Shown here in pieces: positions 34,018 through 60,300 of a stretch of DNA of 64,000 nucleotides. Under the pieces are notes generated by a model. That model did not search any database. It was given only the letters and a program-made list of their open reading frames with translations, and was not told the origin of the DNA. The DNA is taken from assembly GCA_038044745.1 (NCBI GenBank), contig JBBSZK010000002.1, positions 35,790-99,789 of the forward strand, in the 5' to 3' direction. Within the stretch, counting starts at the first letter, position 1. Each line of letters opens with the position of its first letter. The DNA comes from Nanobdellota archaeon (GTDB lineage: Archaea; Nanobdellota; Nanobdellia; Pacearchaeales; GW2011-AR1). Made by a program: the position numbers and the translations under genes.

Positions 34018-34079
34018 ATTATCAATCTAAAATTCACCCTTCGAGTTATAAATTCTCCTACACTACACTCAAAAGGTGT

Positions 34080-36266
34080 CTAAAACTCTAAGAACTTCCA
34101 GTCTTTACCTAAATTCGCTTCATTAAATTCGTACTTTTTACTATCATTGTAACGCCAACTGCCGTCCTTTGATACAGCTATTCCGCCCCATAATTTCTTG
34201 CCCTTTTTATTCTCTCTTTCAATGTAATGTGCTAAAGCCTCGGCCTTAGGTTTTGCGTCTTCGGCAGTCCTACCGGACTTCGTATCAAACAGCCCAACAC
34301 TTCCGTCTTTCATATAAACGATAAAGTCGACATAAAATGCCCTTTCAATACCATTTTCATCACTATACTTTACGGCAAACCATTTTATTTCGCTTTCTCC
34401 ATTTTTGAACCACCAAATCACCTTATTGCCTGCCTTTTCTAAAAGCTCGATGAATTCTTTTTCTGGTTTGCTACCTTCTTTTGCATATACGGGAACCATT
34501 ATGCTCTTCTTATAAGGCATTTTGACATATCTACTATTATGTTCGATCATTTCAGGAACCTCCCAAATGACAGGAACTTCTTCTCTCTGTTCTGCCAAAT
34601 TTTTGATAATTTTCTCAGTATATTCTTCTTTGGCCTTGTTGACTAAATCAAACAAGATTTGCCTATTTGCCTCACTTAATACTAACTTTTGTACATCGTC
34701 CCAATCTTCAACATCAACGACTTTTTCGAATAACTTGTATAACGCAGTCCTCATTACACCGCTCGAGTCTGCCGGGGCGAATGGAGTACATAGTTCTCGA
34801 AGAAGTAAATCAAAGCGATATTGTAGCTCTTTGGGAGTAAGATTGACCTTGATTCCTTCTTTATCTGACTTTACTATCTGCGCCTCATCTAGCTTAACGA
34901 TTTTACCATCGACCATTATACTCGCGATTAACTTGCCCCGATCTCTACTTATTTTTCTACCAAAATTTTGCTTTTTCCCTTCTTCTACTAATATTTTTGA
35001 AAATTCTCCCGAGAGCCTAGTCTTCTCTCTCTGTCTTTTCAAATAGATAGAATTTAGCTGAAGATTCTTATATATTACGTCATTTCTTTTTGATTCATAG
35101 ACAGTTAAGTAATCTTTGGCGATATCCTCAGCAATTTCTATGTTTGAAAGATTTGTATATACATATCCTCTGTTTAGCTTATCATTTTCATAATGTTTAA
35201 GTTCTGGCATTCGCATGATTCTTCCAACTGTCTGGATAGAGAAAACAAGGCTTTGCCATTCTCTAAACAACACCAGAATTTGAGCCCTTGGACAGTCCCA
35301 GCCTAGTGAAATAGCGTGCTTGAAGATAAGAACCTCAACATCGCTTTCATTTTTCTCTATATTTGCTAGATTAGGAGTCTTGTCTTCAGAAAGCCATCTC
35401 GCTAACTTGCCATTTTCTTCAGTTATCTTAAACTTATCTCGAAGTATTTGCTCTATATCGTCTTTCCTATCTATGACTCCAGTTTTTTTGTCAGGAAGTT
35501 GAATAAGGACTAAAGGGTTAATTTTTACCCCTTCTTTTGCGTAGGCCTTTAGAATTTCTTCGCGTTTCTTAAGTGCACACTCTAAAACTAGCTCGTCTGC
35601 ACTTTTCTTTATCTTTTCCTTATCAATTTCAGGATTTATTGAAACCTCTTTTTTGATCATTCCCTCCTCAATAACTTTTGCGAAATCAACCTCCACCATA
35701 TGACCCTCCAATTTTGGAGGTGTTGCAGTTACCTCGATAGCAACTTTGGGTGCGATCTCAGCAACAATTTCTTTCGATTTTTCACTCTTCGCAGTATGAT
35801 GGCTTTCATCAATTACAAGTATTATCTCTTGACCATCTTCTTTTGTATTTGCAATTACTGTGGAAAGGTTGTTGTCTTGTTCATTATCGCGAACATAGAG
35901 GTTTTCTTTTTTGTTGATACTTTCCCAATTGAAAAATAGAACTTCGTTCTCCCCTATTCTCTTATCTTCTAAATCTTCAAAGTCTGAGCATTTAATAATC
36001 CTAGAATCTTCAAAAAAACGGTCTAATTTTTCCTTGCTTTGTGTATGCAACTGACGAACCGAAATCCAGATAAAAGATAGGCGTTTGTTGTCAATTCTGT
36101 CAGTAACGAGTCTCTTTAACGCTTCAGCCATCATAATTGTCTTTCCGCTTCCTGTTGGAGCCTTGAAAACACAGACTTTGTTCTCCGAGAAATCAAGTAA
36201 TCGGTTCACGGTATCTCTTAATTCAGAAACCGCATCTTCTTGATAACCCTTTAATTCAATTATCAT
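34080..36266 (-). CDS. res: type III restriction enzyme, Res subunit (SF2 helicase + C-terminal nuclease domain)
   Basis: Walker A KAPTGSGKT, DEAH box VIDESHH, helicase motif VI QTVGRIMR. C-terminal FYVDFIVYMKDGSVGLFDTKSG is a PD-ExK-like nuclease block. 4-nt overlap with mod. Confidence 0.85.
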   Translation of the reverse strand: MIIELKGYQEDAVSELRDTVNRLLDFSENKVCVFKAPTGSGKTIMMAEALKRLVTDRIDNKRLSFIWISVRQLHTQSKEKLDRFFEDSRIIKCSDFEDLEDKRIGENEVLFFNWESINKKENLYVRDNEQDNNLSTVIANTKEDGQEIILVIDESHHTAKSEKSKEIVAEIAPKVAIEVTATPPKLEGHMVEVDFAKVIEEGMIKKEVSINPEIDKEKIKKSADELVLECALKKREEILKAYAKEGVKINPLVLIQLPDKKTGVIDRKDDIEQILRDKFKITEENGKLARWLSEDKTPNLANIEKNESDVEVLIFKHAISLGWDCPRAQILVLFREWQSLVFSIQTVGRIMRMPELKHYENDKLNRGYVYTNLSNIEIAEDIAKDYLTVYESKRNDVIYKNLQLNSIYLKRQREKTRLSGEFSKILVEEGKKQNFGRKISRDRGKLIASIMVDGKIVKLDEAQIVKSDKEGIKVNLTPKELQYRFDLLLRELCTPFAPADSSGVMRTALYKLFEKVVDVEDWDDVQKLVLSEANRQILFDLVNKAKEEYTEKIIKNLAEQREEVPVIWEVPEMIEHNSRYVKMPYKKSIMVPVYAKEGSKPEKEFIELLEKAGNKVIWWFKNGESEIKWFAVKYSDENGIERAFYVDFIVYMKDGSVGLFDTKSGRTAEDAKPKAEALAHYIERENKKGKKLWGGIAVSKDGSWRYNDSKKYEFNEANLGKDWKFLEF

Positions 36267-38008
36267 TTGAATATTCTCCTATACACATGAAGTATAACCT
36301 CAGGTATTGGGCACAATTTTGCTTTATTCTTAAGCTCTTTGAATTCCTTTTCGGGAACCTTCCCGTCTAATGAAAAGACGTAAACATGGATTTTTTTATC
36401 AAGCTTTTTAGCTTCCTTAACAAAGTCCTCAATAGAATCTTCATCAAACACAATACCCAAATAATAATTATGGTTCTTGAATATCTTCCATTCCCTCTTA
36501 CCCTTGACCGGAATGAATGCGTTTTCTTTAATGCAAATCATCTCTGTAGACTTATCCACAATTTTCTTTTTGTTTTTATCGGTAGGCGCTGAATCGACAA
36601 AGTCTGTCTTAAAGTATTTGAGATTTCCTCCGAGCCCTTCAACTCCCTCTTGACCTGAACTTTTGTACCCTTTGATGACTTTATTAATACGAGGGTAACA
36701 AACCTCTGTGCAGATATTATTTTCATTATTTGTGCATAAAATAAACCTTCGGCTTCCTCCGTCTTCCTTGTTTAAATCAAGGACTGCGTGGCCTGTTGTT
36801 CCAGAACCTGCAAAAAAGTCTAAAACTAAACCATTTTTTGTTGAACAATATCTTATCAGATCTTTAATCAAATAATGGGACTTGGGGCTATCGAATTTTT
36901 TCATCCCATCAAATAACTCTCTTAGAACAGTCGTAGCCGTGTCAGTTGAGTAATCACTATCAATAAGAAAAGATTTCATCTTCAATTTCTTCTCTTCGCC
37001 ATTTTTAAAAAGATAATCTTTCTGGAAAACATCCCATTCATTCCTACCAGAAACTATCTTAGCAACTAGTTCGATTGAACGAACAGTTACAGCCTTCTTT
37101 TCCCATCGCCAACAACCTTCATTACCATTCGACAACTTTGGAGTCACTTCGATATTATGAGTTTTTGTTTTTTCAACAGAAACAGTTTTTCCAACAGGGT
37201 CAATGTAAATTGGATAGAACAAATTCGGTCTATCTTTTCTTCGACTATTGGACCCCCTCTTTCTTAATCCTTGTAACCTATATTTGCCATTTTGGTCTTC
37301 TAAATTATATTCATCCAGAGACTCTGGAGTCATAGGAAGGCCATTTATCTCTGCCGAGGCAGTCTTTCTGTAAAAAAGAAGATATTCATGGGCTGTTGCA
37401 ACATACTTTTTATCGCTTCTTCCCGCAAGATTATTTACTAAACACACATTGGATATAAAGTTATTTCCACCAAAAATCTCGTCACATAAAATTCTCAGCT
37501 GAGCTTGTTCATTGTCATCGATAGAAATGACTATTAGGCCCCCATCTTTTAGAAGTTCTCTGGCAAGTTTAATTCTCTTTTCCATAAACGAGAGCCATTT
37601 ACTATGTCTATAAGCATCTTCTAAATCAACATATTGGTCATTGTATTTGAAATCTTTATTTCCAGTATTATATGGTGGATCGATATAAATAACATCAATT
37701 GATTTGTTATGAGTAAAGTTAAGGGCAGCTAAAGAATGATAGTTATCCCCTTCAATCAGTAAATTAAAATCTTTTTCTTTATCAGTTATAATCTCTTTAT
37801 CACTAACTTCTTTTAATACGGGCAGTTTGTGTTCCGTTCCAGGAAACTTCTCCTCTGTCTTTTGGCCATCCCAATTTATGTAGTAATCAAAAGCCTCTTT
37901 CGTTTTATCTTTTTCCCACACAAGCCCATAAGTCTTTTGTTTTCTTAATGCTTCAACCTCCTTGATTAAATCATCTTTAGACCAGCCAGACAAATCCCTT
38001 TTCACCAT
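36263..38008 (-). CDS. mod: type III R-M Mod subunit (beta-class N6-adenine DNA methyltransferase)
   Basis: Motif IV VIYIDPPYNTG precedes motif I VLDFFAGSGTTGHA, the beta-class order. 581 aa. Confidence 0.85.
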   Translation of the reverse strand: MVKRDLSGWSKDDLIKEVEALRKQKTYGLVWEKDKTKEAFDYYINWDGQKTEEKFPGTEHKLPVLKEVSDKEIITDKEKDFNLLIEGDNYHSLAALNFTHNKSIDVIYIDPPYNTGNKDFKYNDQYVDLEDAYRHSKWLSFMEKRIKLARELLKDGGLIVISIDDNEQAQLRILCDEIFGGNNFISNVCLVNNLAGRSDKKYVATAHEYLLFYRKTASAEINGLPMTPESLDEYNLEDQNGKYRLQGLRKRGSNSRRKDRPNLFYPIYIDPVGKTVSVEKTKTHNIEVTPKLSNGNEGCWRWEKKAVTVRSIELVAKIVSGRNEWDVFQKDYLFKNGEEKKLKMKSFLIDSDYSTDTATTVLRELFDGMKKFDSPKSHYLIKDLIRYCSTKNGLVLDFFAGSGTTGHAVLDLNKEDGGSRRFILCTNNENNICTEVCYPRINKVIKGYKSSGQEGVEGLGGNLKYFKTDFVDSAPTDKNKKKIVDKSTEMICIKENAFIPVKGKREWKIFKNHNYYLGIVFDEDSIEDFVKEAKKLDKKIHVYVFSLDGKVPEKEFKELKNKAKLCPIPEVILHVYRRIFK

Positions 38009-38043
38009 ACTTATTCCAGTAAAACAACATATAAAAATCTACT

Positions 38044-38364
38044 CTAATTACTATCTTTAACTCTTCCCAACAACAGCAAAATAGGCGTAACATCCTTCTT
38101 CTCTAAACTATCAAGTAACTGTTTTAGCTCTTTAGGCGAGCGATTATAAAACATAGCATACCCGAACTTGCCACGCTTTTCTTTGAGTTGGGGGAACATA
38201 TCCACGATTTCCTTTCGGAGCTGGATAATGTTCCATGCTTGAGTGCTTTCTTTGTAGGACAGCTTTCCCTTTATACTGATGCTCTCTCGGGGACTCAAAT
38301 ACAGCAAGTCTCTGATTGTGTTCTTCTCGTCTACTTCTTTTTCTTCTTTCATGTTAGTTCCCAC
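38044..38364 (-). CDS. hypothetical protein
   Basis: 106-aa ORF between mod and the CYTH gene. No motif recognised. Confidence 0.35.
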   Translation of the reverse strand: MGTNMKEEKEVDEKNTIRDLLYLSPRESISIKGKLSYKESTQAWNIIQLRKEIVDMFPQLKEKRGKFGYAMFYNRSPKELKQLLDSLEKKDVTPILLLLGRVKDSN

Positions 38365-38395
38365 TATCTGATTACCTTGAAGACGGTTTACTCTC

Positions 38396-38935
38396 TTATT
38401 TTACAAAGTTTACTTTACCTGTTGCAATATCGCATAACCAGACGTCGTTTCTAATCTTATCTCGTGATATTCCCATCTTTTCAAGCATCTGAGCGAGTGC
38501 TTCTTTCTTTTCAGCTATTTGCGATTCTTCACCATCAGTCTCGATTTCGATGAAATTTCCAATATCCTTTACTTCATCTAACGTGATGCTAAACTCGCCA
38601 AGCTTGAAAGTCTCTCGCTTTTTGTCGATAACTCCTAAAAGAGGAAAGTTAAGTCCATTTAGAATCTGTTTAAAGACTTCAAGGTTATCAACTGCTGTTT
38701 CGTATTCTTTTGTAACACCATCCGCAATATTGACATGATATGCAAATACACCTGTATTTTCGTTTGGTTTATACCTGAGACGAATATACTCTTTGGTTTT
38801 TCGCGTATCTCGTTGAGGATGATTGTAATATTCATCAATCTGATGCTTTTGTTTTTCTTCTTTAGCTCCTAACTTCTTAAGTTCTGCTTTGACTTTCTGC
38901 TTGTCTTCAAAGGTTGCTTTGATTTCAATTTCCAT
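38396..38935 (-). CDS. CYTH-domain protein (class IV adenylyl cyclase / triphosphate tunnel metalloenzyme family)
   Basis: N-terminal MEIEIKATF is the ExExK signature. 179 aa, a typical size for CyaB-like CYTH proteins. Confidence 0.7.
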   Translation of the reverse strand: MEIEIKATFEDKQKVKAELKKLGAKEEKQKHQIDEYYNHPQRDTRKTKEYIRLRYKPNENTGVFAYHVNIADGVTKEYETAVDNLEVFKQILNGLNFPLLGVIDKKRETFKLGEFSITLDEVKDIGNFIEIETDGEESQIAEKKEALAQMLEKMGISRDKIRNDVWLCDIATGKVNFVK

Positions 38936-38958
38936 GTAGTTGTATGCCTCCTTTCATG

Positions 38959-40410
38959 CTATGCTCCATTGACCGTAAGTTGCATATGGCGCGTTGCACG
39001 TCTATGCGAAGGTCTATGACATGTCGATTCTGTTCTAATGACTTGAATATCATTACGTTGATCTTTATCTATAATTTCCTCTAGATATAATGGATCAATG
39101 GCAGGATTGACCTCTTGCATGCCTATTGCTTCTGCAATATGATGATAGTGATCAACCATTAATCTAACTCCATTTCGACCTAAGCTAGTAGGTGTAGCAA
39201 CTGGTTGTTTATGTGTGTATCTATTATAATCTGCTGAAAGTACACGTAATTCTCCTGCCATGTTACGTTCAAATCCGCTTCCTGGGTGAGGGGTAATAAA
39301 CGAGATATAGGTAATAACGCCAGGCAATCTTCCTGTTTCTTCAATAAATACTGCGTTTTCAGCAAGTGTTTCTGGAGTTTCGCCTGGATATCCAAACATA
39401 TACACAGGATTGACTTTACATCCACTCTCTAATAGAACGTCAAATGCTCCGCGAATGGTACGTGCTTTAACGCCCTTGTCCATAGCATCAAGCATGGCTT
39501 GAGAGACTGATTCTACGCCAGTATGGATTGTATCAACTCCTGCTGCGACCATTTGCCTTATAAGGTCTGGCTTTATGCCATCAATGCGCGATTTAGCCTT
39601 ATAGTTTAACCCTAAGTTAGCTTGTTCAATAGCTCCAAAAAGCTCAGCACACCATTTTCCATTTAAGGTAATTGTTTCGTCTTTGAAGTGTACTCGCTTA
39701 AATCCAAATCCATTAAGCATTTCAAGTTCAGCTAAAATATTTTCAATAGAACGCCTGCGATAGCGATATTCCCATAGTTCATTGAGCGTGCAGTGATCGC
39801 AAGCCATTGGACAACCACGCGCTGCATATATTCCTGCAGGCGACATCTTAGCATATTCTTCAACTGGTACCAAATCATAGGCAGGCAGGGGGATTGTGTC
39901 TAAGTCTTTGATAAGTTCCTTATCGGGCATGCGCACAATATTATCTCCATCCCTAAACGCAACTCCCTTTAGATCTGTTTTATTTAAAGTACCTTCAGCA
40001 ACTCGTAAGACTTTGGACAATCCCTCTTCTCCTTCCCCAAATATTACATAATCAATTGCTCCAGTTCGCAAAACAACATCCGCGTTAAACGTAGGATATA
40101 ATCCGCCCATGACAGTTATTTTGCCCATTTCTTTAGCTTTTCGCAAGATAGCTAACGAATCTGGAGATTCAGCTGTACATGCTCCAATTCCTACCACATC
40201 AGAATCTCTAAGGTCTTGTTCAAGGTTGCGAGGAATGCCGAGAGCCTTGTTAAGTCGATAGTCTATAACTCTCACATGAGTTCCATTTCGATCTTGAACA
40301 TAGCCTGCAAGGTACAAAAGACCTAACGGAATGCCGACGTCTCCTGCGTATCCTTGTTTCTTAACTGGGAACTTAATTTCAGGCTTAATGAGAGTCAATT
40401 TAGCTGTCAT
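38959..40410 (-). CDS. B12-binding radical SAM enzyme (class B radical SAM)
   Basis: N-terminal cobalamin-binding-like Rossmann segment (DVVGIGACTAESPDS...ITVMGG). CxxxCxxC cluster ARGCPMACDHC. 483 aa. Confidence 0.75.
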   Translation of the reverse strand: MTAKLTLIKPEIKFPVKKQGYAGDVGIPLGLLYLAGYVQDRNGTHVRVIDYRLNKALGIPRNLEQDLRDSDVVGIGACTAESPDSLAILRKAKEMGKITVMGGLYPTFNADVVLRTGAIDYVIFGEGEEGLSKVLRVAEGTLNKTDLKGVAFRDGDNIVRMPDKELIKDLDTIPLPAYDLVPVEEYAKMSPAGIYAARGCPMACDHCTLNELWEYRYRRRSIENILAELEMLNGFGFKRVHFKDETITLNGKWCAELFGAIEQANLGLNYKAKSRIDGIKPDLIRQMVAAGVDTIHTGVESVSQAMLDAMDKGVKARTIRGAFDVLLESGCKVNPVYMFGYPGETPETLAENAVFIEETGRLPGVITYISFITPHPGSGFERNMAGELRVLSADYNRYTHKQPVATPTSLGRNGVRLMVDHYHHIAEAIGMQEVNPAIDPLYLEEIIDKDQRNDIQVIRTESTCHRPSHRRATRHMQLTVNGA

Positions 40411-40501
40411 TGTAAAATTACTACAAAAGTAAATTATTTAAACCCTGTTTAACTTTTTATTGAACAAAATGGAGTCTGTAAAGTAGATTACTCTGACTAA
40501 A

Positions 40502-41746
40502 ATGGAAGAAAAAACCTTTGCAATATACCCTAGCGATAAGAAAGATTATGACCTAAAGATCGTTCCAGACATAGCAGACGGCAAGTTGTTAACAGTTTTT
40601 TGTTCTTTTACTTTCATTACTCCAAACTATTCTATTCTTTTTACTTTAGAGCAATTGAGAAAATTTGCCAGCTCGGGCAATTATCAAGTGCATATTGTGC
40701 TGTGGGATATGAATATCTTAGCTAATCCTTACTTCGAAAAACTCTATTCCCTTAAGAAAATTGCTCATCCCTCTTCTTTTATTGATGATAAAGTTCAAGA
40801 GATAAAGGCTATCACCAGCTCTATGGGTTTTAATAAAGAAAAAGTATTAGTTTACAAATCTTCAGATTTATGGAAACGCCTTATTTCCTATAAAGATGAT
40901 GATCTATTCCAGGAGTTTTATTCTATTCTGGCTCAAATGAAGACTACGAGTTTTCATGTTTCAGGCGATAAGATATCTCACATGATCCAAATCCCTATGG
41001 ACATTTTCTTTTGCAACCATTTCCATAAATTGTATCCAGAAGACGTTGAACGTCCTATTGATTTAGTCTTTTTCGGAGAAAATAAAGAAGAGCTTTATCT
41101 GGCTTGTAGGGAACTTATGATTTCCAAGCGTATTGTCCAACATAAAAACCCTCTGTTTATTCTCATGAAGAATATACCTTATTTGCTGTTCAATAACATT
41201 ACTCCCGAATGGAATATGAGCTTAAGAGAAATTAAAGACATTGTTGTGGGATGCAATCCTTCCAAAAAGGACTTATTCACTCTTCTTAGTCATCTTGATG
41301 AAATTTCAGGTTTTGTTCGTATAAAGAAAAAAGGATATAATCAGGATTTAGAATATTCTTCTTTTTACAAAGAATATAAGAATATTTTAACAGAAGAATT
41401 ATTCCAAATTCTGGCAGATAATCTCTATCTTTTCTTTCAAGATAGAAAGAAGAAGTATCTGAAGGCTACTGGGGAGATTGAAGAAACAATTCTTAACCTC
41501 TCAAAAAAGAATGATGTCCAAGAAATGGGTTCGATATTGAAGAGCACGATTGCATTAGATATCCTTCTGAAAGCAGATGGGACTCGCACAACTACAGATA
41601 TAGCCAAGGAATTGAATAAGTCTATCGCTACTATAAGCACCTATGCTAATGATCTTAAGAAGATGAAGCTTATTCGGGTTTTGCCTGAAGGCAAGCTTAA
41701 AAGAAATATTAAAGGTGTGAAGATTAATCTAGAACTGGGAATTTAG
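40502..41746 (+). CDS. hypothetical protein with C-terminal winged-helix HTH; N-terminal domain weakly resembles a degenerate class I aaRS (TrpRS/TyrRS-like) Rossmann fold
   Basis: C-terminal TTDIAKELNKSIATISTYANDLKKMKLIRV is a wHTH. N-terminal LLTVFCSFTFITPNYSILFTLEQL...HIVLWDMNILANP has the pattern of the TrpRS HIGH region but lacks HIGH. Confidence 0.35.
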   Translation: MEEKTFAIYPSDKKDYDLKIVPDIADGKLLTVFCSFTFITPNYSILFTLEQLRKFASSGNYQVHIVLWDMNILANPYFEKLYSLKKIAHPSSFIDDKVQEIKAITSSMGFNKEKVLVYKSSDLWKRLISYKDDDLFQEFYSILAQMKTTSFHVSGDKISHMIQIPMDIFFCNHFHKLYPEDVERPIDLVFFGENKEELYLACRELMISKRIVQHKNPLFILMKNIPYLLFNNITPEWNMSLREIKDIVVGCNPSKKDLFTLLSHLDEISGFVRIKKKGYNQDLEYSSFYKEYKNILTEELFQILADNLYLFFQDRKKKYLKATGEIEETILNLSKKNDVQEMGSILKSTIALDILLKADGTRTTTDIAKELNKSIATISTYANDLKKMKLIRVLPEGKLKRNIKGVKINLELGI

Positions 41747-41927
41747 TTTATGGGTTTTGGATAGGATAAAGATTGGTTTTGTGATGAGATCTATCAAATT
41801 GCTGATGAGAACAAGGACTATTTACCATTGTCTAAGATTCAGTTAAAATCTTTAGCTAATTAAACGAAGTAACGGTTATCGATAAGTGAGGGATAGATTT
41901 ATATAACTCTGTTATGTATGAAAATTA

Positions 41928-43358
41928 ATGGGTGATAAGGCATTATTTATCTTATCTCTAGTTTTTTTTGCGGTCTTATTATCTTCTTTGCATTTTTCAT
42001 CAGCTATTGAAATTGAATACAACCTTACTTACGATGCAAACGGTAACCTCATACAAGGTTTCGATAAGTATTTTGAATATGACGGTTTAAACAGATTGAC
42101 TGAAGTAAGAGAAAGCGATGAGAATGGAGTTCTTCTAGAACAATATTTTTATGATTCAGTTGGAAATCGTATCAAAAAAATAACCTATAATGGCGCGCAA
42201 AACGAAACTACTTACTATATTGATAAAAATTTTGTTCAAGTTGTAAACAGTTCAGGCACCTTTAACTATACTTACTATTATGCTGACGGCCTACTATTAG
42301 CTGCTAAAGACCCTTCTGGAAAAAAGCAATTCTATCATCCAGATCATCTAGGAAGTACGAACCTTATAACCAATGAATCAGGACAAATAATAGAGAACAC
42401 AATTTACTCTCCTTACGGAGAAGTAACTGACGAGGGACAAGAAAGCCGTTATCTTTTTACAGGCAAGGAGTTTGACCGCAGTACCGATTTATATTATTAT
42501 GGCGCTCGATATTATGATCCTATTACTAATCATTTTATCCAACCAGATTCTCAGATTCAAGACGTATACAATCCGCAAGACCTAAATCGATATTCTTATG
42601 CTCGTAATAACCCGTATAGATATACCGACCCTTCTGGAAATGCGGTTAATCTTGTTACAGGAGCCATTGGAGCTACTATAGGTGGTGGAGCTTCATTTAT
42701 CATCTCAGTTATATCTCAGTATTCTTCAACAGGACAAGTCAATTGGGCTGACGCAGGCAAAGATACTGCTGCAGGTTTAGTTGCAGGAGGAGTAAGCGGT
42801 CTAACATTTGGTGCTGGTGCTGTTTTGTTGGGGGGAGAGCTATCTTCTGGTTCGATAATGATTCTTATGGGTGCCTCGGGATCCCTTGGATCAGGGGTAG
42901 GACAAATAACATCGAACTTACTTTATGATAGAGCGATTACAGATAATGTACCGCAAGCCGCTATTGCAGGCGGAGCTTTATCAGTAGCAACTGCAGGAGC
43001 AGTTAAAGGTGGGTCTTCTATACTTAAATCACTAAATATAAATTCAGGATTTAATAAATTAAATTTTGCTAGTAAAGAAGCTCTTATTAAACATTTTGAG
43101 TCGCATGGAAACGATTTTGGTTTTACTTCATCCAATCAATATTTAAAAGCAAGTCAGAATTTCTTGGCTGGAAAAGCAGGAAAAGGGGTTTTGGAATATA
43201 CTCGACCAATCGGTGATGTTGTAAGATATAATCCTCAAACAAATGAGTTTGGAGTTAAAACTGCTCAAGGGACTATAAGAACTTACTTTAAACCTACGGA
43301 AGGAGCAAGATACTATGCAAGCGATAAAGCCAATTACTTACCGGAGGTAGATGAATGA
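41928..43358 (+). CDS. secreted RHS/YD-repeat protein with RHS repeat-associated core and C-terminal polymorphic toxin domain (type unassigned)
   Basis: Signal peptide MGDKALFILSLVFFAVLLSSLHFSSA. YD repeats (YFYDSVGNRIKKITYNG). RHS core hallmark YYGARYYDPITNHFIQPD ... NPYRYTDPSGN. C-terminus has Gly-zipper GAIGATIGGGASFIISVIS and a ~150-aa unique tail. Confidence 0.75.
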   Translation: MGDKALFILSLVFFAVLLSSLHFSSAIEIEYNLTYDANGNLIQGFDKYFEYDGLNRLTEVRESDENGVLLEQYFYDSVGNRIKKITYNGAQNETTYYIDKNFVQVVNSSGTFNYTYYYADGLLLAAKDPSGKKQFYHPDHLGSTNLITNESGQIIENTIYSPYGEVTDEGQESRYLFTGKEFDRSTDLYYYGARYYDPITNHFIQPDSQIQDVYNPQDLNRYSYARNNPYRYTDPSGNAVNLVTGAIGATIGGGASFIISVISQYSSTGQVNWADAGKDTAAGLVAGGVSGLTFGAGAVLLGGELSSGSIMILMGASGSLGSGVGQITSNLLYDRAITDNVPQAAIAGGALSVATAGAVKGGSSILKSLNINSGFNKLNFASKEALIKHFESHGNDFGFTSSNQYLKASQNFLAGKAGKGVLEYTRPIGDVVRYNPQTNEFGVKTAQGTIRTYFKPTEGARYYASDKANYLPEVDE

Positions 43359-43786
43359 GCAGTAGAAGAAAAGAAACAATTAAACATGATGAAAGCCCTG
43401 TAAGAAAAATAGTACAAGACTCTAAAAGAGAAAAGTATAACAAATTTTTAAGCTTAAAGGCCGCCCTACATTATAAAGATGCTTATCTCGTTATGGAAGG
43501 AGATTGTGGAGGACAGATTTATTTAACTGTTCCAGTAAAATTTGTAAAATGTAATGAAAAAACCCTTAGAAGTCTTTTGAATGAAATAGATTCTTTGGCT
43601 TGGAAAGACCCAGAATGCGCAGGTTTTTATTTTGAAAGAAGACCTAAAGGAGAGATTCTTATAGGCGGTATGGGGGGAGGAAAGATTCAAGACGATCTAT
43701 GGGTGCATAAAGAACTTGAATATCTCAAGGAAAAAATAAGATTAATTTTGAAAGGAAAGGTTAACGCAGATGATTTGATAAAATGA
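43355..43786 (+). CDS. putative cognate immunity protein of the RHS toxin
   Basis: 143-aa ORF whose start overlaps the toxin stop (ATGA). This is the canonical position for polymorphic-toxin immunity genes. No known motif. Confidence 0.45.
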   Translation: MSSRRKETIKHDESPVRKIVQDSKREKYNKFLSLKAALHYKDAYLVMEGDCGGQIYLTVPVKFVKCNEKTLRSLLNEIDSLAWKDPECAGFYFERRPKGEILIGGMGGGKIQDDLWVHKELEYLKEKIRLILKGKVNADDLIK

Positions 43787-46700
43787 GAAGAAAATCTAAA
43801 ATTGTAATAACCTTGGTCTTTTTTATTTGTCTTGTAATTATTGCCATGTCATCGGTAAAGGCAATAGGCCCTTTACCAATCTATCTACAAGACCCTATTG
43901 TTCCTGATTCTCCCTTATCACTTCAAAGCAGGTCAGAGACAGACGTATACACAGGAGCATTTACTCAGAATTTCCCTATTCAATTACCTCTAGGTACCAA
44001 TGGGTTAAAACCCTCTTTATCTTTATATTATAATAGTCATATGTTTGATTCTCCAAGACAGAGTTTGATAGGTAATGGTTGGGATGTACAGTTAAATTAT
44101 ATAGAAAGAAGAACTAATTACACTGCTTCTAATATTTCGGACGATTACTACGTTATTGTTTTTAACGGAATCAAAGAAGAGAATTTAATTTACGACCCAG
44201 TTCAAAGATCGTATGAGACAAAAATAAGGAACTTTTTTTATATTTCTAATTTAAGTGGAGGACAAGGCACGGGAGGTTTATATTGGACAGTAAAAACTGG
44301 GGACGGATCTATATATAGATTCGGTTATTGGAATAATTCTTTATTGAAGGCTGGACTTTATAACTATACATCACGATGGTATCTTGATTTAGTTAATGAC
44401 ACCTATGGAAACCAAATTTTTTACAATTATAGCATTAACCCTTATGCAAATGATAGTTCTGCAGTTTATCCACTTTCAATAGAATATAATAACGATAGAC
44501 AGAGAAAAATAGAATTTGTTCTAACTTCAGTAGATAGAATCGATAAGAAGACTCAATATATAGAAGGTAGTTTTATCAGATTAAGTCGAGCAATAAAAGA
44601 AGTTAGGATTTTAGCTAATGGTTCTCTTGTCAGAAAGTATGATTTGGGATACAACGGTACAGATTATCGAAATCTTTTAATAAATTTAACTGAATTTGGT
44701 TCAAATAACTCTCTTTCATTAAGCCCAATATCTTTTAATTATTCATCATCTTCTAAGAATTTTACCAACATAAATTCTCAGTGGTCTATTCCTTCGGGGG
44801 TATTCTTTCATATAGGTTGGACTAATGGGGGGAGTGATACGGGTGTTCGCTTGGCCGATATCAATAGAGACGGCAAGGTAGATTTATTAAAGGCCTATTG
44901 TAATTCTAACACCTATTCGTGCTATCAAAATCCAAATCAAATAGATAGAGCAGTGTGGTTGAATAATGGAAGCGGGTGGACAAGCTCAAATCTTCAATTG
45001 CCACCTATTCCTTTTGGTGTTAGCTATAATTGGGACAGCGGAGCAAGAATTATAGATATAAACGGAGATGGTTTTACAGACATAGTACAAACTTGGATAG
45101 ATGATCAGGATCCGAATAAAGTTATAAGAGAAACGTGGTTAAATAATGGTACGGCTTTCATAAATAATACTAACTGGAGTATTGAATCCGACATTTTCTT
45201 TCACATGGGATGGGTTGATGGAGGGAGTGATACTGGAATAAGAATTGCAGATTTAAACGGAGACTCGTTACCTGACCTAGCAAAAAGTTATTGTAACAAC
45301 CCGCCGTGGTTATGTTCAAATCCTGAAAGAAAGGTATGGATTAATACTGGAAAGGGTTGGAGAAATGACTCTGGAATTTCCTTACCGCCGGTCACTTTCA
45401 GAGTTAGTAATCACGCAGAACCTGGCACATTCATAAATGATTTAAATGGAGATGGACTAGCAGATGTTGTTCAATATTGGAGGCAAGATGATTTCTCTTC
45501 GGATCAACCAACACAATTAAGTGTGTGGTTAAATAATGGAAGCGGATTTAACAATTTTACCTCTAATTGGAGCATGCCTTCAGAAGCATTCTACGTAGGA
45601 TATACTAATGGAGGTATGGATAACGGTGTTCGTTTAATAGACATAAATGGAGACAATCTTATTGATGTCATCCAAGCGAGATGTTACTCTAATACTCGAG
45701 GGTGTTATGATTCACCAGGGCTTATTCAAAAAAATGTTTGGTTAAATAATGGAAAAGGGTGGGTTCTAGACCAAAACTGGAGTCTGCCTGATCCAATTGC
45801 CTTAATTAACAATTATAACTGGGATCCTGGTACAAGAATGGCAGATATCAACGGGGATGGGATTACCGATTTTATACAGCTATGGCAGGACGGGTCTGAT
45901 GAAATTAAAGATATTTGGATAAATAATGGTCAAAAAGGATATATTCTTCAGTCAGTTAAAAATCAATTTGGAGGTATTACTCGCGCCTCGTACAAACAGT
46001 CAACTCTTCTAAATAATACAGGCGTAGACACTTTAAATGATATTGGTTTCAATTTGTGGGTAGTTGAAAATATAAGCAAGGACAATGGATTAAACACTTC
46101 GCATAAGGTTATACAGGTTGCTCGATATAATTATGTGGGAGCATTATACGAATATCCTACAAAAGAATACAGAGGGTTTGCATATAGTCGTGAGAATTTA
46201 AGTGAAGGAATAATCAAAGAACATTATTTTCTACAAGAAGAAGGCAACAGAGGTCAAGAATATCTCATTAAATTAAGTAACAAAAGCGGTTCGTTGTACA
46301 CAACCATTTATAGAGATTGGAAATTATCTTTTAGCAATGGTTTATATAAGCTAGAATTAAAAAACATAACTGAACTAGTTTATGATGGTTTGGCAATTAA
46401 CCCTCGTCCACGCCTTACTGTTTTTAATTATGATCAATTTGGGAATATAATAGTAAAACAACTATTGGGAGATCCTCAAAACTTAGAAGATGATACATAT
46501 GAATATTTTGAATATGCTACAAATAATAGTACATGGATAATCAATAAAGTTAAAAATTATACTTTGTACGGGAGCGATAACCAAACCAAGTTTAGACAAA
46601 CGCTTTATTATTATGATAATTTAGTATATGGTGGCTCTCCAACTAAAGGAAGTATCACGAAGAAAGAGGAATGGTTAAGCGGAGGAACAAATCCTTTAAC

Positions 46701-56355: not shown

Positions 56356-56682
56356 TTAGCCAGTTACAAACTGCACAACTAATGGCGCTGCCCATATTAT
56401 GACCAAACCTATGAGAACATACATTATCATCGCCTTGGCTCCTTCTCTTTTTCCTGGATCGCTTCCAGACATAATGTAGTTAGCTCCCGCCAAAAGCAAG
56501 ATTAGAACTGCAATGAAAGTAGCTGCATATTTGATAAGATTGTAAATCTTCATCACAGGCTCTAAAATTTGGTCAAAAGTCTCTTTGTCTTCATCGCTTA
56601 TAGTATCATTAAATTGTGCGGATACCAAAGGAATAAAGGACAATCCTATAAACAAAAGGACAGCAAAAGTTTGAGCTTTCAT
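56356..56682 (-). CDS. small pilin-like membrane protein (signal peptide + hydrophobic hairpin), VirB2/TrbC-like candidate
   Basis: MKAQTFAVLLFIGLSFIPLVSAQ, then two hydrophobic segments (ATFIAVLILLLAGANYIMSG, AMIMYVLIGLVIIWAAPLV). 108 aa. Confidence 0.4.
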   Translation of the reverse strand: MKAQTFAVLLFIGLSFIPLVSAQFNDTISDEDKETFDQILEPVMKIYNLIKYAATFIAVLILLLAGANYIMSGSDPGKREGAKAMIMYVLIGLVIIWAAPLVVQFVTG

Positions 56683-56870
56683 TCTTCCACCTCCTTTTCA
56701 GCTGATTGTGAACGCCACTTTTTTAGGAACTTATTGGATTGTTTGAAACGCGCCACCTCTTTTTTTAAGCCCTTTTTGTACTTGTCTTGAAAGAATCCAA
56801 AACAGGTTTCGCACAAATCTCCTTCTTGTTTTTCAATTTCTACTCCGCAAATAATGCAATTGTTTTTCAT
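56679..56870 (-). CDS. small zinc-ribbon protein
   Basis: CIICGVEIEKQEGDLCETCFGFF has CxxC...CxxC. 63 aa. Confidence 0.4.
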   Translation of the reverse strand: MKNNCIICGVEIEKQEGDLCETCFGFFQDKYKKGLKKEVARFKQSNKFLKKWRSQSAEKEVEE

Positions 56871-56962
56871 AATTGTTCGTTAGAAAGTAATTATAAAAGA
56901 AATCGGAAACCAAACGGACTACGATGTGGACTACTAAATGGACTACGAGCCAATAGTCCACT

Positions 56963-57571
56963 TTGTCCCCGACTCGTTATAAGGTTATTTTGATGGGAGA
57001 ATTCATGAAACAAAAACCATTTTCATGGAAATTTGATATACGGAAAAAGTATAGTATCATCTACGCTGACCCTCCGTGGAAATATAATACAAAAGTCAAT
57101 TACCCCACCGTTCCCATTAGAGATATTCAGAAATTCCCTATTGATCAAATTGCAGATGATAACTGCGCCTTGTTTCTCTGGGCCACCTATGCTATTCTAC
57201 CTGAATGCATAGAAACTCTCAAAAAATGGGGATTCAGATACGTTACCGTTGCATTCACGTGGGTCAAGACCAATAAAAATGACGGCAGGCCATTTTTTGG
57301 GCTAGGAGCATGGACACGAGCCAATGCAGAAGTCTGCTTATTAGGATTAAAGGGAAATGTAAAGCGAGAATCCTCAAAAGTAAAGCAAGTGGTTCTCTCC
57401 CCCTTACGCGAACACAGCCGTAAGCCTGATGAAATTCGTGATAGTATTGTAGAATTATTGGGAGACTTACCCCGTATTGAATTATTTGCTCGCCAAACCG
57501 TAAGGGGCTGGGATTGTTGGGGTAACGAAACTAAAAAATTCAACAAGGAGACTCATGGAAAGCACCATTGA
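56963..57571 (+). CDS. MT-A70-family N6-adenine DNA methyltransferase (orphan; start more likely ATG at 57005)
   Basis: YSIIYADPPWKY carries the DPPW motif. GGGAGA SD-like sequence lies upstream of the 57005 ATG. No adjacent restriction gene. Confidence 0.7.
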   Translation: MSPTRYKVILMGEFMKQKPFSWKFDIRKKYSIIYADPPWKYNTKVNYPTVPIRDIQKFPIDQIADDNCALFLWATYAILPECIETLKKWGFRYVTVAFTWVKTNKNDGRPFFGLGAWTRANAEVCLLGLKGNVKRESSKVKQVVLSPLREHSRKPDEIRDSIVELLGDLPRIELFARQTVRGWDCWGNETKKFNKETHGKHH

Positions 57572-57642
57572 AAGTGTTGATCCTGAAGAAATTATGAGAA
57601 GACTTGAGCGATTGATCGTTCTTCTGACTAAAAAATACAAAG

Positions 57643-57828
57643 TTGATAATGAAAAAGAACGTAAGACTATCGCTTAGGATAACATCAGACTTGTTAAATA
57701 ACCTTAGAAGGGAAGCTGAAGATCAAGAGACCTCAATAGCAAGCCTATGCCGAGAAAAACTGAATAATCGTTCACAATTAAATAAGATAGAGTCTATTGT
57801 CTTGGATATACAAAAGAGAGTTAAATAG
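57643..57828 (+). CDS. ribbon-helix-helix (CopG/Arc-like) DNA-binding protein
   Basis: KKNVRLSLRITSDLLNNLRREAEDQETSIASLCREKL shows a beta-strand then two helices. 61 aa. Confidence 0.45.
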   Translation: MIMKKNVRLSLRITSDLLNNLRREAEDQETSIASLCREKLNNRSQLNKIESIVLDIQKRVK

Positions 57829-57850
57829 AGAACAAATGCCAAAGACGCTT

Positions 57851-57877
57851 AAACTCGATCTCGACAATCTTTATAAA
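57851..57877 (+). repeat. copy 1 of ~25-nt repeat AAACTC-N-ATCTCGACAATC(T/C)TTA-AAA
   Basis: aaactcgatctcgacaatctttataaa. Related copies at 58621..58637 and 59195..59221. Confidence 0.5.
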
Positions 57878-57947
57878 TCGCTCCAGTCTCAGACAAATAA
57901 GGCACATTCATAAGCGAGTTTCACCGAATCTGCCAAAATGGCGCGAG

Positions 57948-57977
57948 CCCGGCAGGGGCATAAACCATTTTGGCATT
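57948..57977 (+). repeat. attR: second copy of the 30-bp direct repeat; preceded by the 11-bp inverted-repeat arm tgccaaaatgg (57931..57941), complementary to ccattttggca inside the repeat
   Basis: Exact match to 30351..30380. Confidence 0.8.
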
Positions 57978-58039
57978 AAAATTCTCGCAACCGAAATGTT
58001 TATAAATATAGCCATTATAATGGTTATAAGAATTATAAC

Positions 58040-58246
58040 ATGGAAAACACAACCATCGCGGTAAGCAACGACGTAAAAGAACAGATTAAGGAGTTCGGGA
58101 GCAAAGGCGAAACATACTCCGAGATACTAACACGATTGCTGGCGAGCGCCAGAAAAAGACAACTGCACGACCTTTTAATGAGTGAAGAAGGCACTATTCC
58201 TATAGAACAAGCCATTGCCGAGTCTAAAAGGAAATGGCAAAAGTAA
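58040..58246 (+). CDS. type II antitoxin (small DNA-binding protein) paired with the RelE-like toxin
   Basis: 68 aa. Overlaps the downstream toxin gene by 13 nt. TIAVSNDVKEQIKEFG...YSEILTRLL has an antitoxin-like fold pattern. Confidence 0.5.
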   Translation: MENTTIAVSNDVKEQIKEFGSKGETYSEILTRLLASARKRQLHDLLMSEEGTIPIEQAIAESKRKWQK

Positions 58247-58578
58247 TTATCACAGAAAGACTTAAGGAAGAGATTTACAAACAATTTAAGACCAAGTCTA
58301 CTGAAATATTCGAACTGATGTATAGCTTAAGTGAAAATCCGCATAAAGGAAAGCCACTTGGAAACGTAAGCTCGCTGGTTATAAAAGAGATAAAATATGA
58401 GAACTGTCGCTTTTATTTTATCACAGATGGGTTTAAAATAAAAATGCTTCAAAAAGAAGAATTAAGCGATTTAGTAATAAAGTTCGTGCGCATGTCAGAT
58501 AAAAAAACACAACAAAAAACCATTGATGAAATAAAAAATATTTTAAGAAAATTAGGAGAAGAAGGATTTCAGCGATAA
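58234..58578 (+). CDS. RelE/ParE-family toxin
   Basis: ENPHKGKPLGNVSSLVIKEIKYENCRFYFITDGFKIKMLQ resembles the RelE core (..P..GKPL.G....LR.G.YRiiY.i.d..i.il). Confidence 0.55.
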   Translation: MAKVIITERLKEEIYKQFKTKSTEIFELMYSLSENPHKGKPLGNVSSLVIKEIKYENCRFYFITDGFKIKMLQKEELSDLVIKFVRMSDKKTQQKTIDEIKNILRKLGEEGFQR

Positions 58579-58620
58579 TCGAGGAAATTAATTAAACACG
58601 ATAAATTTTGATTAATTATG

Positions 58621-58637
58621 TATCTCGACAATCCTTA
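58621..58637 (+). repeat. copy 2 of the repeat (tatctcgacaatcctta) between the two convergent TA cassettes
   Basis: 17-nt exact match to 59201..59217. Confidence 0.5.
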
Positions 58638-58889
58638 CTGCTCATCCTTATGATAAAACTCTAGAAACTCAATACAATTTCGATCTTTATGATAATCGTA
58701 AGAAAGCCGAAACGTTCCGCCATATAAATATACCTCGCGAGTTCCTTTTCTAGCATTACGCATTGGTTTACCAATTTCAGGATCTTCTACAATCTTCTTA
58801 ATTTTGTTTTTAACGCTCTTCTGAATTTCCGCATCTTTTACCTTAGCGACTGCACGTGTAAAGCGATCATCAAAGAGAACATCTACCAT
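58635..58889 (-). CDS. RelE/YoeB-family toxin
   Basis: EDPEIGKPMRNARKGTREVYLYGGTFRLSYDYHKDRNCIEFLEFYHKDE. 84 aa. Confidence 0.6.
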   Translation of the reverse strand: MVDVLFDDRFTRAVAKVKDAEIQKSVKNKIKKIVEDPEIGKPMRNARKGTREVYLYGGTFRLSYDYHKDRNCIEFLEFYHKDEQ

Positions 58890-59152
58890 TTCTCAAGTTC
58901 TTCAAGGAATTTATCAGCAGACAATCTTTGAAATTCCCCTTTCTCATGACGCTTATATGCTTCTTCAGTTCGCTTTGCAAATTCCAAGTCTTCTTTAAAC
59001 TGCTCGTCTAAACTATCTGCCTTCTTAAGAAGAAGTGTATTATTTTCTCGAATAATAAGTAAAGTGTCTCCTTCCTTAAATTCGTCCCGCATACTTGCAG
59101 GTATTACAATCTGACCTTTCGAACTTACCTTGGTAGTGTCTATTTGAACCAT
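58883..59152 (-). CDS. AbrB/MazE-fold (SpoVT_AbrB) antitoxin, 89 aa from MVQIDTTKVSSKGQIVIPASMR
   Basis: The swapped-hairpin motif KGQIVIPASMR is typical of the AbrB/MazE family. Stop overlaps the RelE start. The longer track ORF (163 aa) has an implausible Cys-rich N-extension. Confidence 0.55.
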   Translation of the reverse strand: MVQIDTTKVSSKGQIVIPASMRDEFKEGDTLLIIRENNTLLLKKADSLDEQFKEDLEFAKRTEEAYKRHEKGEFQRLSADKFLEELEKW

Positions 59153-59194
59153 AGTAAGATATATCTTACCCGCGTATATAAATCTTCCGTTCTT

Positions 59195-59221
59195 AAACTC
59201 TATCTCGACAATCCTTAAAAA
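59195..59221 (+). repeat. copy 3 of the repeat (aaactctatctcgacaatccttaaaaa), upstream of the AbrB antitoxin gene
   Basis: See copies 1 and 2. Confidence 0.5.
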
Positions 59222-59291
59222 CGTCCATAACATGGACACAATAAGTAGAATGCCCACTAAAATCGCATGAGGGGGGTGTTGCTCGGCAGGG

Positions 59292-59305
59292 ACATTTCTA
59301 ATCCC
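59292..59305 (+). repeat. degenerate att-like site (ctcggcagggacat, 13/14 identical to the core cggcaggggcat of attL/attR) where the low-GC DNA ends
   Basis: Abuts the pitA 3' end. Composition switches from AT-rich to ~50% GC here. Confidence 0.3.
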
Positions 59306-60300
59306 TAAAACAAACGAGCAATCAGATACGTCCCTGCGCCCACAAGTCCAGAAATAGGAATAGTCACAATCCATGCGTACACAATTTTCTTAGCAAGCTG
59401 CCAGCGAACCGCGGACTTTCGACGCACTGCCCCCGTCCCACAAATCGCCCCCGTAATAACGTGCGTGGTACTCACCGGAATACCTGCAATCGTTGAGCCA
59501 ATCACGACAAGCGAGCCAGCCGTTTCAGCACAAAAACCATTGACCGGTTGAAGCTTTGTTAAATTAAGGCCCATAGTTCGAATAACCCGTACCCCTCCCA
59601 AAAGCGTTCCAAGCGCAATAGTCGTATACGACGCAACAACAACCCAAAACGGAACGTGAAACGTCGCACCTAAAACGCCTCCGCTGAAAAGAAGAATCGT
59701 AATAATTCCAATCGTTTTCTGGGCATCGTTCGCACCATGGCTGACACTGTACGCTGTAGCCGAAAGGATTTGCAGACCTTTGAACCACGGATTTACCTGA
59801 GAACGAGAAGCATTTCTAAAAAGAAAAAAGACGAATAATTGAAACATATACGCAATGATACCTCCTAAAATAGGTGCAACAAAAATAAAAGCAATAATCT
59901 TCAAAAGCCCCGAATATATAATAGAAGCAAATCCTGCAGCGCTCACGGCGCTTCCAACAAACCCTCCAATAAGCGAGTGACTCGCGGAAATAGGCAATCC
60001 AAGATAGGTAGCAAGATATACCCAAAGAATAGAACCCACAAGACCTGCAACAACGACGAGAGGAGTCACCGCGTCAGGCAAAATAAGCCCTTTCCCAATC
60101 GTAGTAGCAACCGCAACTCCAAAAAGAAAAATGCCTGCGAAGTTTCCAAGAGCCGATAAAATAACGGCTTGCCTCAAAGAGAGAACCCTCGTAGCAACCA
60201 CGGTAGAAACCGCATTAGCCGCATCATTCAGCCCATTTCCAAAATCAAACAAAAGCGCAAGAATCACGCCGATAAGAACAAGCAAAGGAAGTTCTATCAT
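59305..60300 (-). CDS. pitA: inorganic phosphate transporter, PiT family
   Basis: GNGLNDAANAV and HGANDAQKTIG are PHO4-domain signatures. ~10 TM helices. Confidence 0.85.
   Translation of the reverse strand: MIELPLLVLIGVILALLFDFGNGLNDAANAVSTVVATRVLSLRQAVILSALGNFAGIFLFGVAVATTIGKGLILPDAVTPLVVVAGLVGSILWVYLATYLGLPISASHSLIGGFVGSAVSAAGFASIIYSGLLKIIAFIFVAPILGGIIAYMFQLFVFFLFRNASRSQVNPWFKGLQILSATAYSVSHGANDAQKTIGIITILLFSGGVLGATFHVPFWVVVASYTTIALGTLLGGVRVIRTMGLNLTKLQPVNGFCAETAGSLVVIGSTIAGIPVSTTHVITGAICGTGAVRRKSAVRWQLAKKIVYAWIVTIPISGLVGAGTYLIARLF

Follow-up and report, generated by a model that had tools for sequence, protein, structure and literature searches.

Toxin-antitoxin cassettes beyond attR of a tRNA-Glu island in a Nanoarchaeota genome: probable remnants of stacked integrations

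The 64-kb stretch of DNA analyzed here (hereafter the window) belongs to a Nanoarchaeota (DPANN) metagenome-assembled genome (MAG) and carries a conjugative-type integrative element at the 3′ end of a tRNA-Glu gene. It raises the question of why AT-rich DNA continues beyond the right attachment site (attR) of this island. The extension holds two convergent two-gene cassettes of the toxin-antitoxin (TA) type, TA1 and TA2; three copies of a short motif are distributed between it and the adjacent end of the island, and it ends at a degenerate attachment core next to the host gene pitA. We consider it likely that positions 57978-59295 are the remnant of one or two earlier integrations into the same tRNA-Glu gene by elements of the same broad family as the 27.6-kb island. 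The island itself has the structure of a tRNA-targeting integrative element, direct repeats that include the tRNA 3′ end being present at both of its ends. Loci and contigs used for comparison are designated by L-numbers.

The first line of evidence is compositional. The extension (57978-59281) has a GC content of 35.2%, compared with 35.6% for the island and 44.2% for the host DNA on either side, and the rise falls between ~59.2 and 59.4 kb, i.e. the foreign segment ends at the distal core. The original prediction that AT-rich DNA continues past attR to ~59.3 kb is thus borne out. It had also located an att-like site at 59292-59305, matching the attL/attR core at 13/14 positions. Such a site is present, but it lies ten bases to the left, at 59282-59295, and the match is 12/14. 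This site, CTCGGCAGGGACAT, is the sole extra core match in the window at two or fewer mismatches (0.16 expected), has the same orientation as attR, to which it is distal, and ends 10 nt before the pitA stop codon. The core form TGCTCGGCAGGG also occurs at attR of L078, L106 and L122, and for this reason the C-to-T mismatch in the distal core is probably derived from the arm, leaving one true mismatch in CGGCAGGGACAT. The comparison over CGGCAGGGGCAT given in the table refers to the 12 nt that related elements have in common with the tRNA.

The second line of evidence comes from the motif. A ~25-nt motif of the form AAACTC-N-...-AAA had been reported three times in this region. We found three copies of the 17-mer TATCTCGACAATCCTTA, all on the + strand, at 57857-57873 (two mismatches), 58621-58637 and 59201-59217, and none elsewhere in the 64 kb at three or fewer mismatches; the chance expectation is 0.21, and none of 100 shuffles reached three matches. 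The repeat itself therefore stands well beyond chance, but its start coordinates required correction, and the long form, a 30-mer, is confined to copies 1 and 3 (27/30 identical to each other), copy 2 sharing the 17-mer alone. Counted from a 16-mer within the motif, the core follows at 90 nt for copy 1 and at 80 nt for copy 3.

The meaning of copy 1 is clarified by L077 and L078, which are related copies of the main island. In these two islands a spacing of exactly 90 nt separates ATCTCGACAATCCTTA from the tRNA-Glu core downstream, as it does for copy 1, and since the gene beside it differs in L077, conservation starts at this block. The block and its spacing being shared by L077 and L078, copy 1 therefore forms the outer boundary of the right attachment arm that belongs to the island itself. 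Flanking the attR core, GCCAAAATGG (57932-57941) is inverted relative to CCATTTTGGC (57965-57974), and the integrase may bind this pair as core-type sites. Boxes resembling them, CCAAAA.. / ..TTTTGG, were seen beside cores in other loci.

Copy 3 is likewise followed by an arm. Local alignment of this 60-nt segment with arms of other loci scores 28, compared with a shuffle mean of 15.5 and a maximum of 25 (0 of 500 shuffles reach 28), and boxes such as CCCACTAAAATCGCATGA are common to the copy-3 arm and to arms of other loci. The flank of the distal core is thus homologous to related att arms, both in its block and in the arm behind it. After copy 2, no arm similarity was found by shuffle-tested alignment. 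A by-eye impression that the island's arm is kin to a 'GAGTCCC' arm subfamily was not significant in a shuffle test and was discarded.

We examined the distribution of the block by scanning one genome per species for the 20-mer ATCTCGACAATCYTTAWAAA (185,579 species, GTDB). The scan returned 41 loci, against ~4 expected by chance. Approximately 37 of the 41 lie in DPANN or DPANN-like contigs, and the 4 that are clearly non-DPANN equal the chance expectation. The DPANN or DPANN-like loci come from ~31 MAGs, 29 of them labelled Nanoarchaeota, Pacearchaeota, Woesearchaeota or uncultured archaeon and 2 probably misbinned. With its flanks, the extended consensus reads approximately a.tCYATCCAYTCn, then ATCTCGACAATCYTTAWAAA, then tc....c.RTC. 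Typically, a core resembling a tRNA 3′ end lies 80-130 nt downstream of the block; mean GC peaks at 0.44 between +90 and +115 (background ~0.30), and in 27 of 47 block instances the region from +80 to +129 includes a 12-mer with 9 or more G/C. The cores can be read as 3′ ends of tRNA-Glu (CGGCAGGGGCAT), tRNA-Ser (CTGGTCCGGGCG), a Tyr-like tRNA and others, and several block loci lie directly downstream of a co-oriented tRNA gene. Many loci contain two or three co-oriented blocks at distances of 0.65-3 kb, and behind each block come an arm and a copy of one core. Tandem arrays of co-oriented units in which the core is repeated are found in L090, L102, L118, L094, L107 and L093, and the cores of L118 become progressively more degenerate. 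L122 provides an undecayed reference, in which tRNA-Glu is followed by a core, a ParE-MazE pair, a core, an MNT-HEPN pair and a block-arm-core. Genes adjacent to blocks encode Fic proteins, TrmB-like regulators, ParE/MazE, MNT/HEPN pairs and GNATs.

Outside this set, a stricter scan of genome contigs with AAACTCNATCTCGACAATCYTTA gave no match, and in JGI metagenomes AAACTCNATCTCGACAATCYTTA was found in one 1.2-kb contig (L059). In viral contigs the 16-mer gave 55 single matches, which is chance level, and the extended block was found in none. L121 was considered as a possible excised (attP) form and rejected, no integrase (int) gene lying downstream. Contigs L119, L100 and L106 and the source of protein P0010 were deposited as 'Bacteroidetes bacterium' or 'bacterium', yet they carry DPANN-type block-arm units or a DPANN TA1 toxin; by their content they are probably misbinned DPANN. 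The ~300-residue Fic proteins and MNT nucleotidyltransferases found by blocks (L091, L104, L122 and others) have in common a basic N-terminal region of ~40 residues (..KGKKYYYLVHS.R.GKKV..K.YLG..). In L084 (~1740-1760), L086 (~3900) and L109 (4270-4290), an arm is followed by an inverted tRNA-Glu core (ATGCCCCTGCCG / ATGCCCCCACCGAA), an arrangement that suggests a second attP configuration or head-to-head insertions.

These observations can be accommodated by a family of integrative elements of Nanoarchaeota-type DPANN that would use a divergent tyrosine recombinase. Their attachment site would comprise a core identical to the final 12-14 nt of a tRNA gene and a cargo-side arm of ~80-130 nt opening with the near-invariant block, (a.tCYATCCAYTCn)ATCTCGACAATCYTTAWAAA. 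On integration the tRNA 3′ end would be restored and the core duplicated at the distal end of the element. Every newcomer would enter at the intact tRNA end and push older elements outward, so that the expected layout is the tRNA gene, the newest element ending in block-arm-core, then older elements ending in block-arm-core. The window can be read in the same order: tRNA-Glu with attL, the island, block 1 with its arm and attR; next TA1 and block 2, the arm and core of which would have been lost; and finally ParE/MazE, block 3, its arm, a core with one or two mismatches, and pitA. The order of these events and the deletion after copy 2 are what we infer from this layout; the older elements would have decayed to TA operons and right ends. 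Resistance to deletion is to be expected of addictive TA genes.

Within this scheme, 58638-59295 looks like one unit, ParE/MazE followed by block-arm-core, and would be the oldest layer; its arm belongs to a subfamily unlike the island's. TA1 is best read as relic cargo at the tRNA-Glu hotspot, because in relatives it occupies the same chromosomal neighbourhood, near a rhomboid gene, and because a 13/14 tRNA-Glu core follows it by ~100 nt in L076. Copy 2 could be the truncated right end of a separate relic, by likeness to L090, L108 and L122. The tandem accretion at tRNA-Glu and the composite island put forward in the original prediction are thereby supported, by the conserved spacing in L077 and L078, by the linkage of block, arm and tRNA-derived core across the DPANN MAGs, and by the alignment of the copy-3 arm.

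Features of the window discussed in the text, with coordinates and the basis of each assignment
Feature	Position	Strand	Basis or remark
tRNA-Glu(UUC), integration target	30290..30364	+	ARAGORN
attL, last 14 nt of tRNA-Glu and 16 nt beyond	30351..30380	+	30/30 direct repeat with 57948-57977
Main 27.6-kb conjugative-type integrative element, presumed newest insertion	30381..57947	n/a	attL/attR bounds; GC 35.6%; VirB4/TraC-like, type IV secretion system (T4SS)-pilin, RHS and MT-A70 genes
Putative divergent tyrosine recombinase (integrase)	30446..31594	+	NCBIfam XerA_Arch E 9.5e-11, far under curated cutoff
RHS/YD/TcdB-like protein, 1,912 aa	43783-49521		
VirB4/TraC-like ATPase	51456-53702	-	
TrbC/T4SS-pilin-like protein	56356-56682	-	
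Small ribbon-helix-helix (RHH, CopG-like) protein, last gene of the island	57643..57828	+	Pfam CopG_antitoxin E 2.6e-4, under cutoff
Motif copy 1, conserved block opening the island's right att arm	57848..57877	+	Same block 90 nt before core in L077, L078
Rest of the island's right arm	57878..57947	+	Motif through core 93/104 identical to L077, 90/104 to L078
attR of main island	57948..57977	+	30/30 identical to attL
TA1 antitoxin, RHH, DUF7557/VapB-like, 68 aa	58040..58246	+	PF24434 28.7 bits, cutoff 25; PF02697 just under cutoff
TA1 toxin, 114 aa, predicted RelE/ParE-fold core and C-terminal helical extension	58234..58578	+	AlphaFold2 (AF2) model
Motif copy 2, bare 17-mer without arm or core	58621..58637	+	Last 3 nt coincide with the ParE stop codon
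TA2 toxin, ParE-like, 84 aa	58635..58889	-	PF15781 E 4.6e-6, 26.9 bits, just under cutoff of 28
TA2 antitoxin, MazE/AbrB (SpoVT), 89 aa	58883..59152	-	PF04014 36.8 bits, cutoff 24.7; TIGR01439 40.9 bits, cutoff 28.3
TATA-like box of the mazE-parE operon	59175..59183	-	23 nt before ATG, leaderless geometry; inferred from sequence
Motif copy 3	59192..59221	+	27/30 with copy 1; 29/30 with L059
Diverged att arm, probably of an older element, including box CCCACTAAAATCGCATGAGGGG	59222..59281	+	Aligns with arms of L118, L090, L111, L084, L086
Degenerate distal att core CTCGGCAGGGACAT	59282..59295	+	12/14 to attL/attR; 11/12 over CGGCAGGGGCAT
pitA (PHO4 family), first host gene past the composite island	59305..60300	-	PF01384 E 5e-89; GC 46%

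Several points weigh against this interpretation. Copy 2 has neither arm nor core, and the arrangement in which a ParE-antitoxin operon stands between two motif copies recurs in three genomes (the window, L108 at 2877-3722 and L090 at 4652-5320), the upstream copy being without a core each time; this repeated absence of the inner core is somewhat more regular than random decay predicts. Our reading is that the recurrent bracket reflects repeated loss of the internal arm and core, the inner arm being cut at different points in the window, L108 and L090, and the L122 counterpart keeping intact cores. L108 has in addition a third, degenerate motif copy at 3476, followed by three TTTGTCTACA repeats. 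No empty site, in which tRNA-Glu would abut pitA, was found via pitA homologues, which is an absence of data and not a contradiction, and the closest pitA relative (86% identity) has a different downstream neighbour. The integrase assignment is also weak: the open reading frame (ORF), 66 nt from attL, matches XerA_Arch at 41.7 bits for a cutoff of 220 and has no Pfam match even at E ≤ 10. Its homologues in the motif-bearing loci L109 and L117 share 65% and 57% identity, respectively, and it appears to belong to a poorly modelled clade of tyrosine recombinases. Finally, there is no sign in these data that any of the elements still moves.

Two RelE-type cassettes had been predicted in the extension, and this assignment is reasonable, more firmly so for TA2, the MazE protein of which scores over its cutoffs and the ParE protein just under. 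The two TA2 genes overlap by 7 nt with the antitoxin first, as in type II TA systems with RelE/ParE toxins; the antitoxin start was taken from gene calls in L002 and L003. Homologues of the TA2 toxin adjoin motifs in L087, L090, L108 and L122. For the TA1 toxin, neither Pfam nor NCBIfam gives a match. Its homologues number more than 1,295; the best-scoring 120, mostly from Nanoarchaeota/Pacearchaeota sources, are 65-88% identical to it, an unusually high conservation for a TA toxin. Its AF2 model (pLDDT 82.8) matches archaeal and bacterial RelE (1wmi_A, 9g12_B) and ParE (6xrw) structures over the first ~80-90 residues, with Foldseek probabilities of 0.92-1.00 and TM values of 0.57-0.71 (target-normalised), but with weak E-values (0.02-0.3).

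Look-ups of the exact TA1 and TA2 proteins returned contigs that all have the same arrangement, except for one variant TA1 allele and for unitig breaks at copy 2. The variant is L064 (ENA ERZ1292635), a low-coverage contig identical to the window across TA2 and copy 2, which from 58376, inside the TA1 toxin gene, carries a diverged allele; the switch points to strain-level recombination in the cassette region. Logan unitigs of ERR3858116 and ERR3858118 (L003, L061, L062) break with a 30-nt overlap at 58633-58662, at or beside copy 2. Such a break, read as a branch in the assembly graph, implies population heterogeneity at or beside copy 2; the second branch was not recovered from these unitigs.

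How else could the extension have arisen? The unitig break would be compatible with a crossover at the motif itself, in the manner of integron cassettes, a ParE/MazE circle having recombined with a resident motif to produce the 17-nt repeats at 58621 and 59201. These are perfect (17/17) direct repeats 580 nt apart that bracket exactly one operon and its promoter, the same bracket is seen again in L108 and L090, and the arrays are co-oriented, with units of 0.65-1.5 kb and integron-typical cargo (TA, GNAT, Fic). We nevertheless regard this scenario as unlikely, for an arm and a tRNA-derived core come after every block in most arrays, the core repeating from unit to unit as crossover at the core predicts, and the ParE-MazE unit of L122 is bounded by cores and not by motifs. 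Moreover, the upstream breakpoints of the three bracketed cases differ (+17, ~+36 and ~+74), which fits deletions better than a fixed crossover, and no block-specific recombinase is evident. Even so, describing the motifs as cassette boundaries, as had been suggested, remains apt at the descriptive level, the block marking the boundary between cargo and arm.

The remaining alternatives do without integration at the distal site. If the TA cassettes were old residents of host DNA, AT-rich as TA genes usually are, the motifs and the 12/14 site would be products of chance or local duplication. The presence of TA1 near the rhomboid gene in several related genomes would then mean that it has been at this locus for some time, and the failure to find an empty site would be no surprise. 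We judge this very improbable: motif and core-like site alike are more frequent than chance predicts, the arm behind copy 3 has homology to att arms of other genomes, a tRNA-Glu core follows TA1 itself in L076, and the interval between tRNA-Glu and the rhomboid gene is different in every relative examined. Hardly any credence is left for the proposal that the antitoxins recognise the motif as their operator or promoter, the att-like site at 59282 having arisen by coincidence; the distribution of the block largely refutes it. It is true that the mazE start is 39 nt from copy 3, which lies upstream of it just past the TATA box, that part of the block resembles a promoter, and that TA genes are common neighbours of the block. 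However, the block is non-palindromic and lies on the strand opposite to mazE-parE, facing away from it; copy 1 is beside no TA operon and copy 2 sits at the 3′ ends of two convergent toxin genes; homologous TA1 cassettes occur elsewhere without the block; and the block also accompanies unrelated Fic, GNAT, TrmB and MNT/HEPN genes, its position being tied to tRNA-derived cores. The operator sites suggested in the original prediction are thus not supported. Its other caveat, that a motif found genome-wide and unlinked to TA genes would be a generic promoter element, proved half right: the block is not TA-specific, but its linkage to att cores sets it apart from a generic promoter.

Stacked integration leaves the role of the block to be considered: it may be a site for a recombination protein or an outward-facing promoter with a transcription factor B recognition element (BRE) and a TATA box, and both could hold. 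We give roughly half the weight to the promoter. The 3′ half of the block, CGACAATC-CTTAWAAA, resembles an archaeal BRE/TATA element, and host genes in the window have CTTATAAA or CTTAAAAT ~30 nt upstream of the ATG. In many arms an ATG or ATA is present at +44 to +48, and a few arms have short ORFs at this point that look coding-conserved (L092/L095, L059/L085). Genes beside the block are more often co-oriented with it than opposed, both upstream (35 vs 12) and downstream (30 vs 18). Transcription from such a promoter would cross the core toward int in an excised circle and enter the following unit in an array. A binding site for the integrase or for an accessory recombination protein receives about a third of the weight; the positional link of the block to att cores, the onset of conservation at the block and its resemblance to arm-type sites, which are kept as core specificity changes, count against a promoter-only role.

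Other identities for the block, which is non-coding, were rejected. It is not the start of a minus-strand gene, no conserved ORF being present there, nor are block and arm a split or unusual tRNA gene: only 12-14 nt match a tRNA, ARAGORN reports none, and Rfam gives chance-level matches only. RNAalifold found no consensus pairs or hairpin in the copy-3 arm subfamily. As for the short arm ORFs, L092 and L095 (motif at 673) have a 30-codon ORF of equal length, MENPTWVNIILELAEEAENKNNKEKSKDDN / MGNPEWVTKLLELKKQAEIDKKAEKSNNDN, at +45 to +135, inside the arm, the core lying at ~+190; L059 and L085 have another short arm ORF in common, with many synonymous differences.

The process proposed here, tandem accretion and decay at a tRNA gene with survival of TA genes, is well known in bacteria and in some archaea. 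Tandem accretion and cis-mobilizable elements (CIMEs) are known at tRNA and other att sites, for instance with the integrative and conjugative elements (ICEs) ICESt1 and ICESt3 of Streptococcus thermophilus, and tRNA-fragment footprints of integrated elements are known in the genomes of Sulfolobales and Thermococcales. As in CIME/ICE accretion, the new element sits at the intact tRNA end with older ones pushed outward, internal att copies persist, the older units are partly deleted and without integrase, and the outermost att copy is the most degenerate. Unlike in CIME/ICE accretion, the elements reside in a DPANN archaeon and consist of very small units (one or two genes), and the arms of elements at different tRNA genes have a near-invariant 20-45-nt block in common, of which we found no description in the searchable literature. 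Lambda-type attP sites consist of a core and of arm-type sites for Int and accessory proteins, and lambda and HK022 have the same arm sites with different core specificities. The block is similar in being a conserved element of one arm, ~100 nt from the crossover site, that is kept across relatives with different cores. It differs in being one long unit and not several short repeated sites, and in looking like an archaeal promoter as well; a search of the 64-kb window revealed no block near attL, in the opposite arm. The TA cassettes resemble type II systems (RelE/ParE with AbrB/MazE or RHH antitoxins) in their two small overlapping genes with the antitoxin first and in their domain matches and the predicted TA1 fold, and persistence in decayed mobile DNA is the behaviour expected of such systems; the TA1 toxin departs from them by its lack of a profile match, its extra C-terminal helical region and its unusual conservation.

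Integrons have been reported in Archaea (Ghaly et al. 2022, PMC9668308), and we did not find the block in the supplementary files of that paper that were searched. The arrays described here share with integrons a co-oriented organization of short cassettes, each followed by a conserved sequence of the size of a recombination site, and a cargo rich in TA genes and acetyltransferases. Unlike in integrons, the repeated site ends in a tRNA 3′-end core, no boundaries of the R''/R' (GTTRRRY) type are visible by eye, and the arrays are anchored at tRNA genes and not at an attI beside intI. By structure we do not class them as integrons; the resemblance is functional. The novel aspects are the element family and the DPANN that host it, the near-invariance of the arm block among elements with different tRNA targets, and the short stacked cargo units.

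DPANN mobile elements are barely characterised, and the 20-45-nt block ~100 nt from a tRNA-derived core offers a sequence handle with which elements, relics and cargo arrays can be located in ~30 species-level MAGs in a single scan. Layered integration and decay would explain the presence of two TA operons in AT-rich DNA past attR, and tRNA genes of reduced DPANN genomes would act as stacking sites for defence and addiction genes. A bolder possibility, which we put forward tentatively and think rather less likely than its opposite, is that block, arm and tRNA-derived core form the recombination site of non-autonomous, cassette-sized mobile units that carry one or two genes (TA, Fic, GNAT, MNT/HEPN). 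Co-oriented arrays at tRNA genes of Woese-/Pacearchaeota-type DPANN would be built up from these units by integrases acting in trans, such as that of the conjugative-type island, and the block would serve as an outward promoter for the next unit, or for int after circularisation. Should the short units turn out to be mobilisable cassettes that bring their own promoter, ordinary tRNA att sites would have furnished DPANN archaea with an integron-like platform for gene capture; the whole would amount to a tRNA-anchored functional analogue of the integron in ultra-small archaea.

The remaining features of the window concern its setting. Exact protein matches assign the window to a 112-kb contig from Hainich groundwater (0.1-µm fraction, ENA ERZ1292629), and its proteins are also present in an NCBI MAG labelled Nanoarchaeota archaeon. 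The neighbouring host genes are archaeal (Spt4, Rpb7, S24e and S27e). Besides the island genes listed in the table, a PrgI/TraC-like protein and an MT-A70 methyltransferase are encoded in the island, and its gene order is rearranged in L077. Homologues of its last gene product, the small RHH protein (P0122 and P0123), lead to the related islands L077 and L078.

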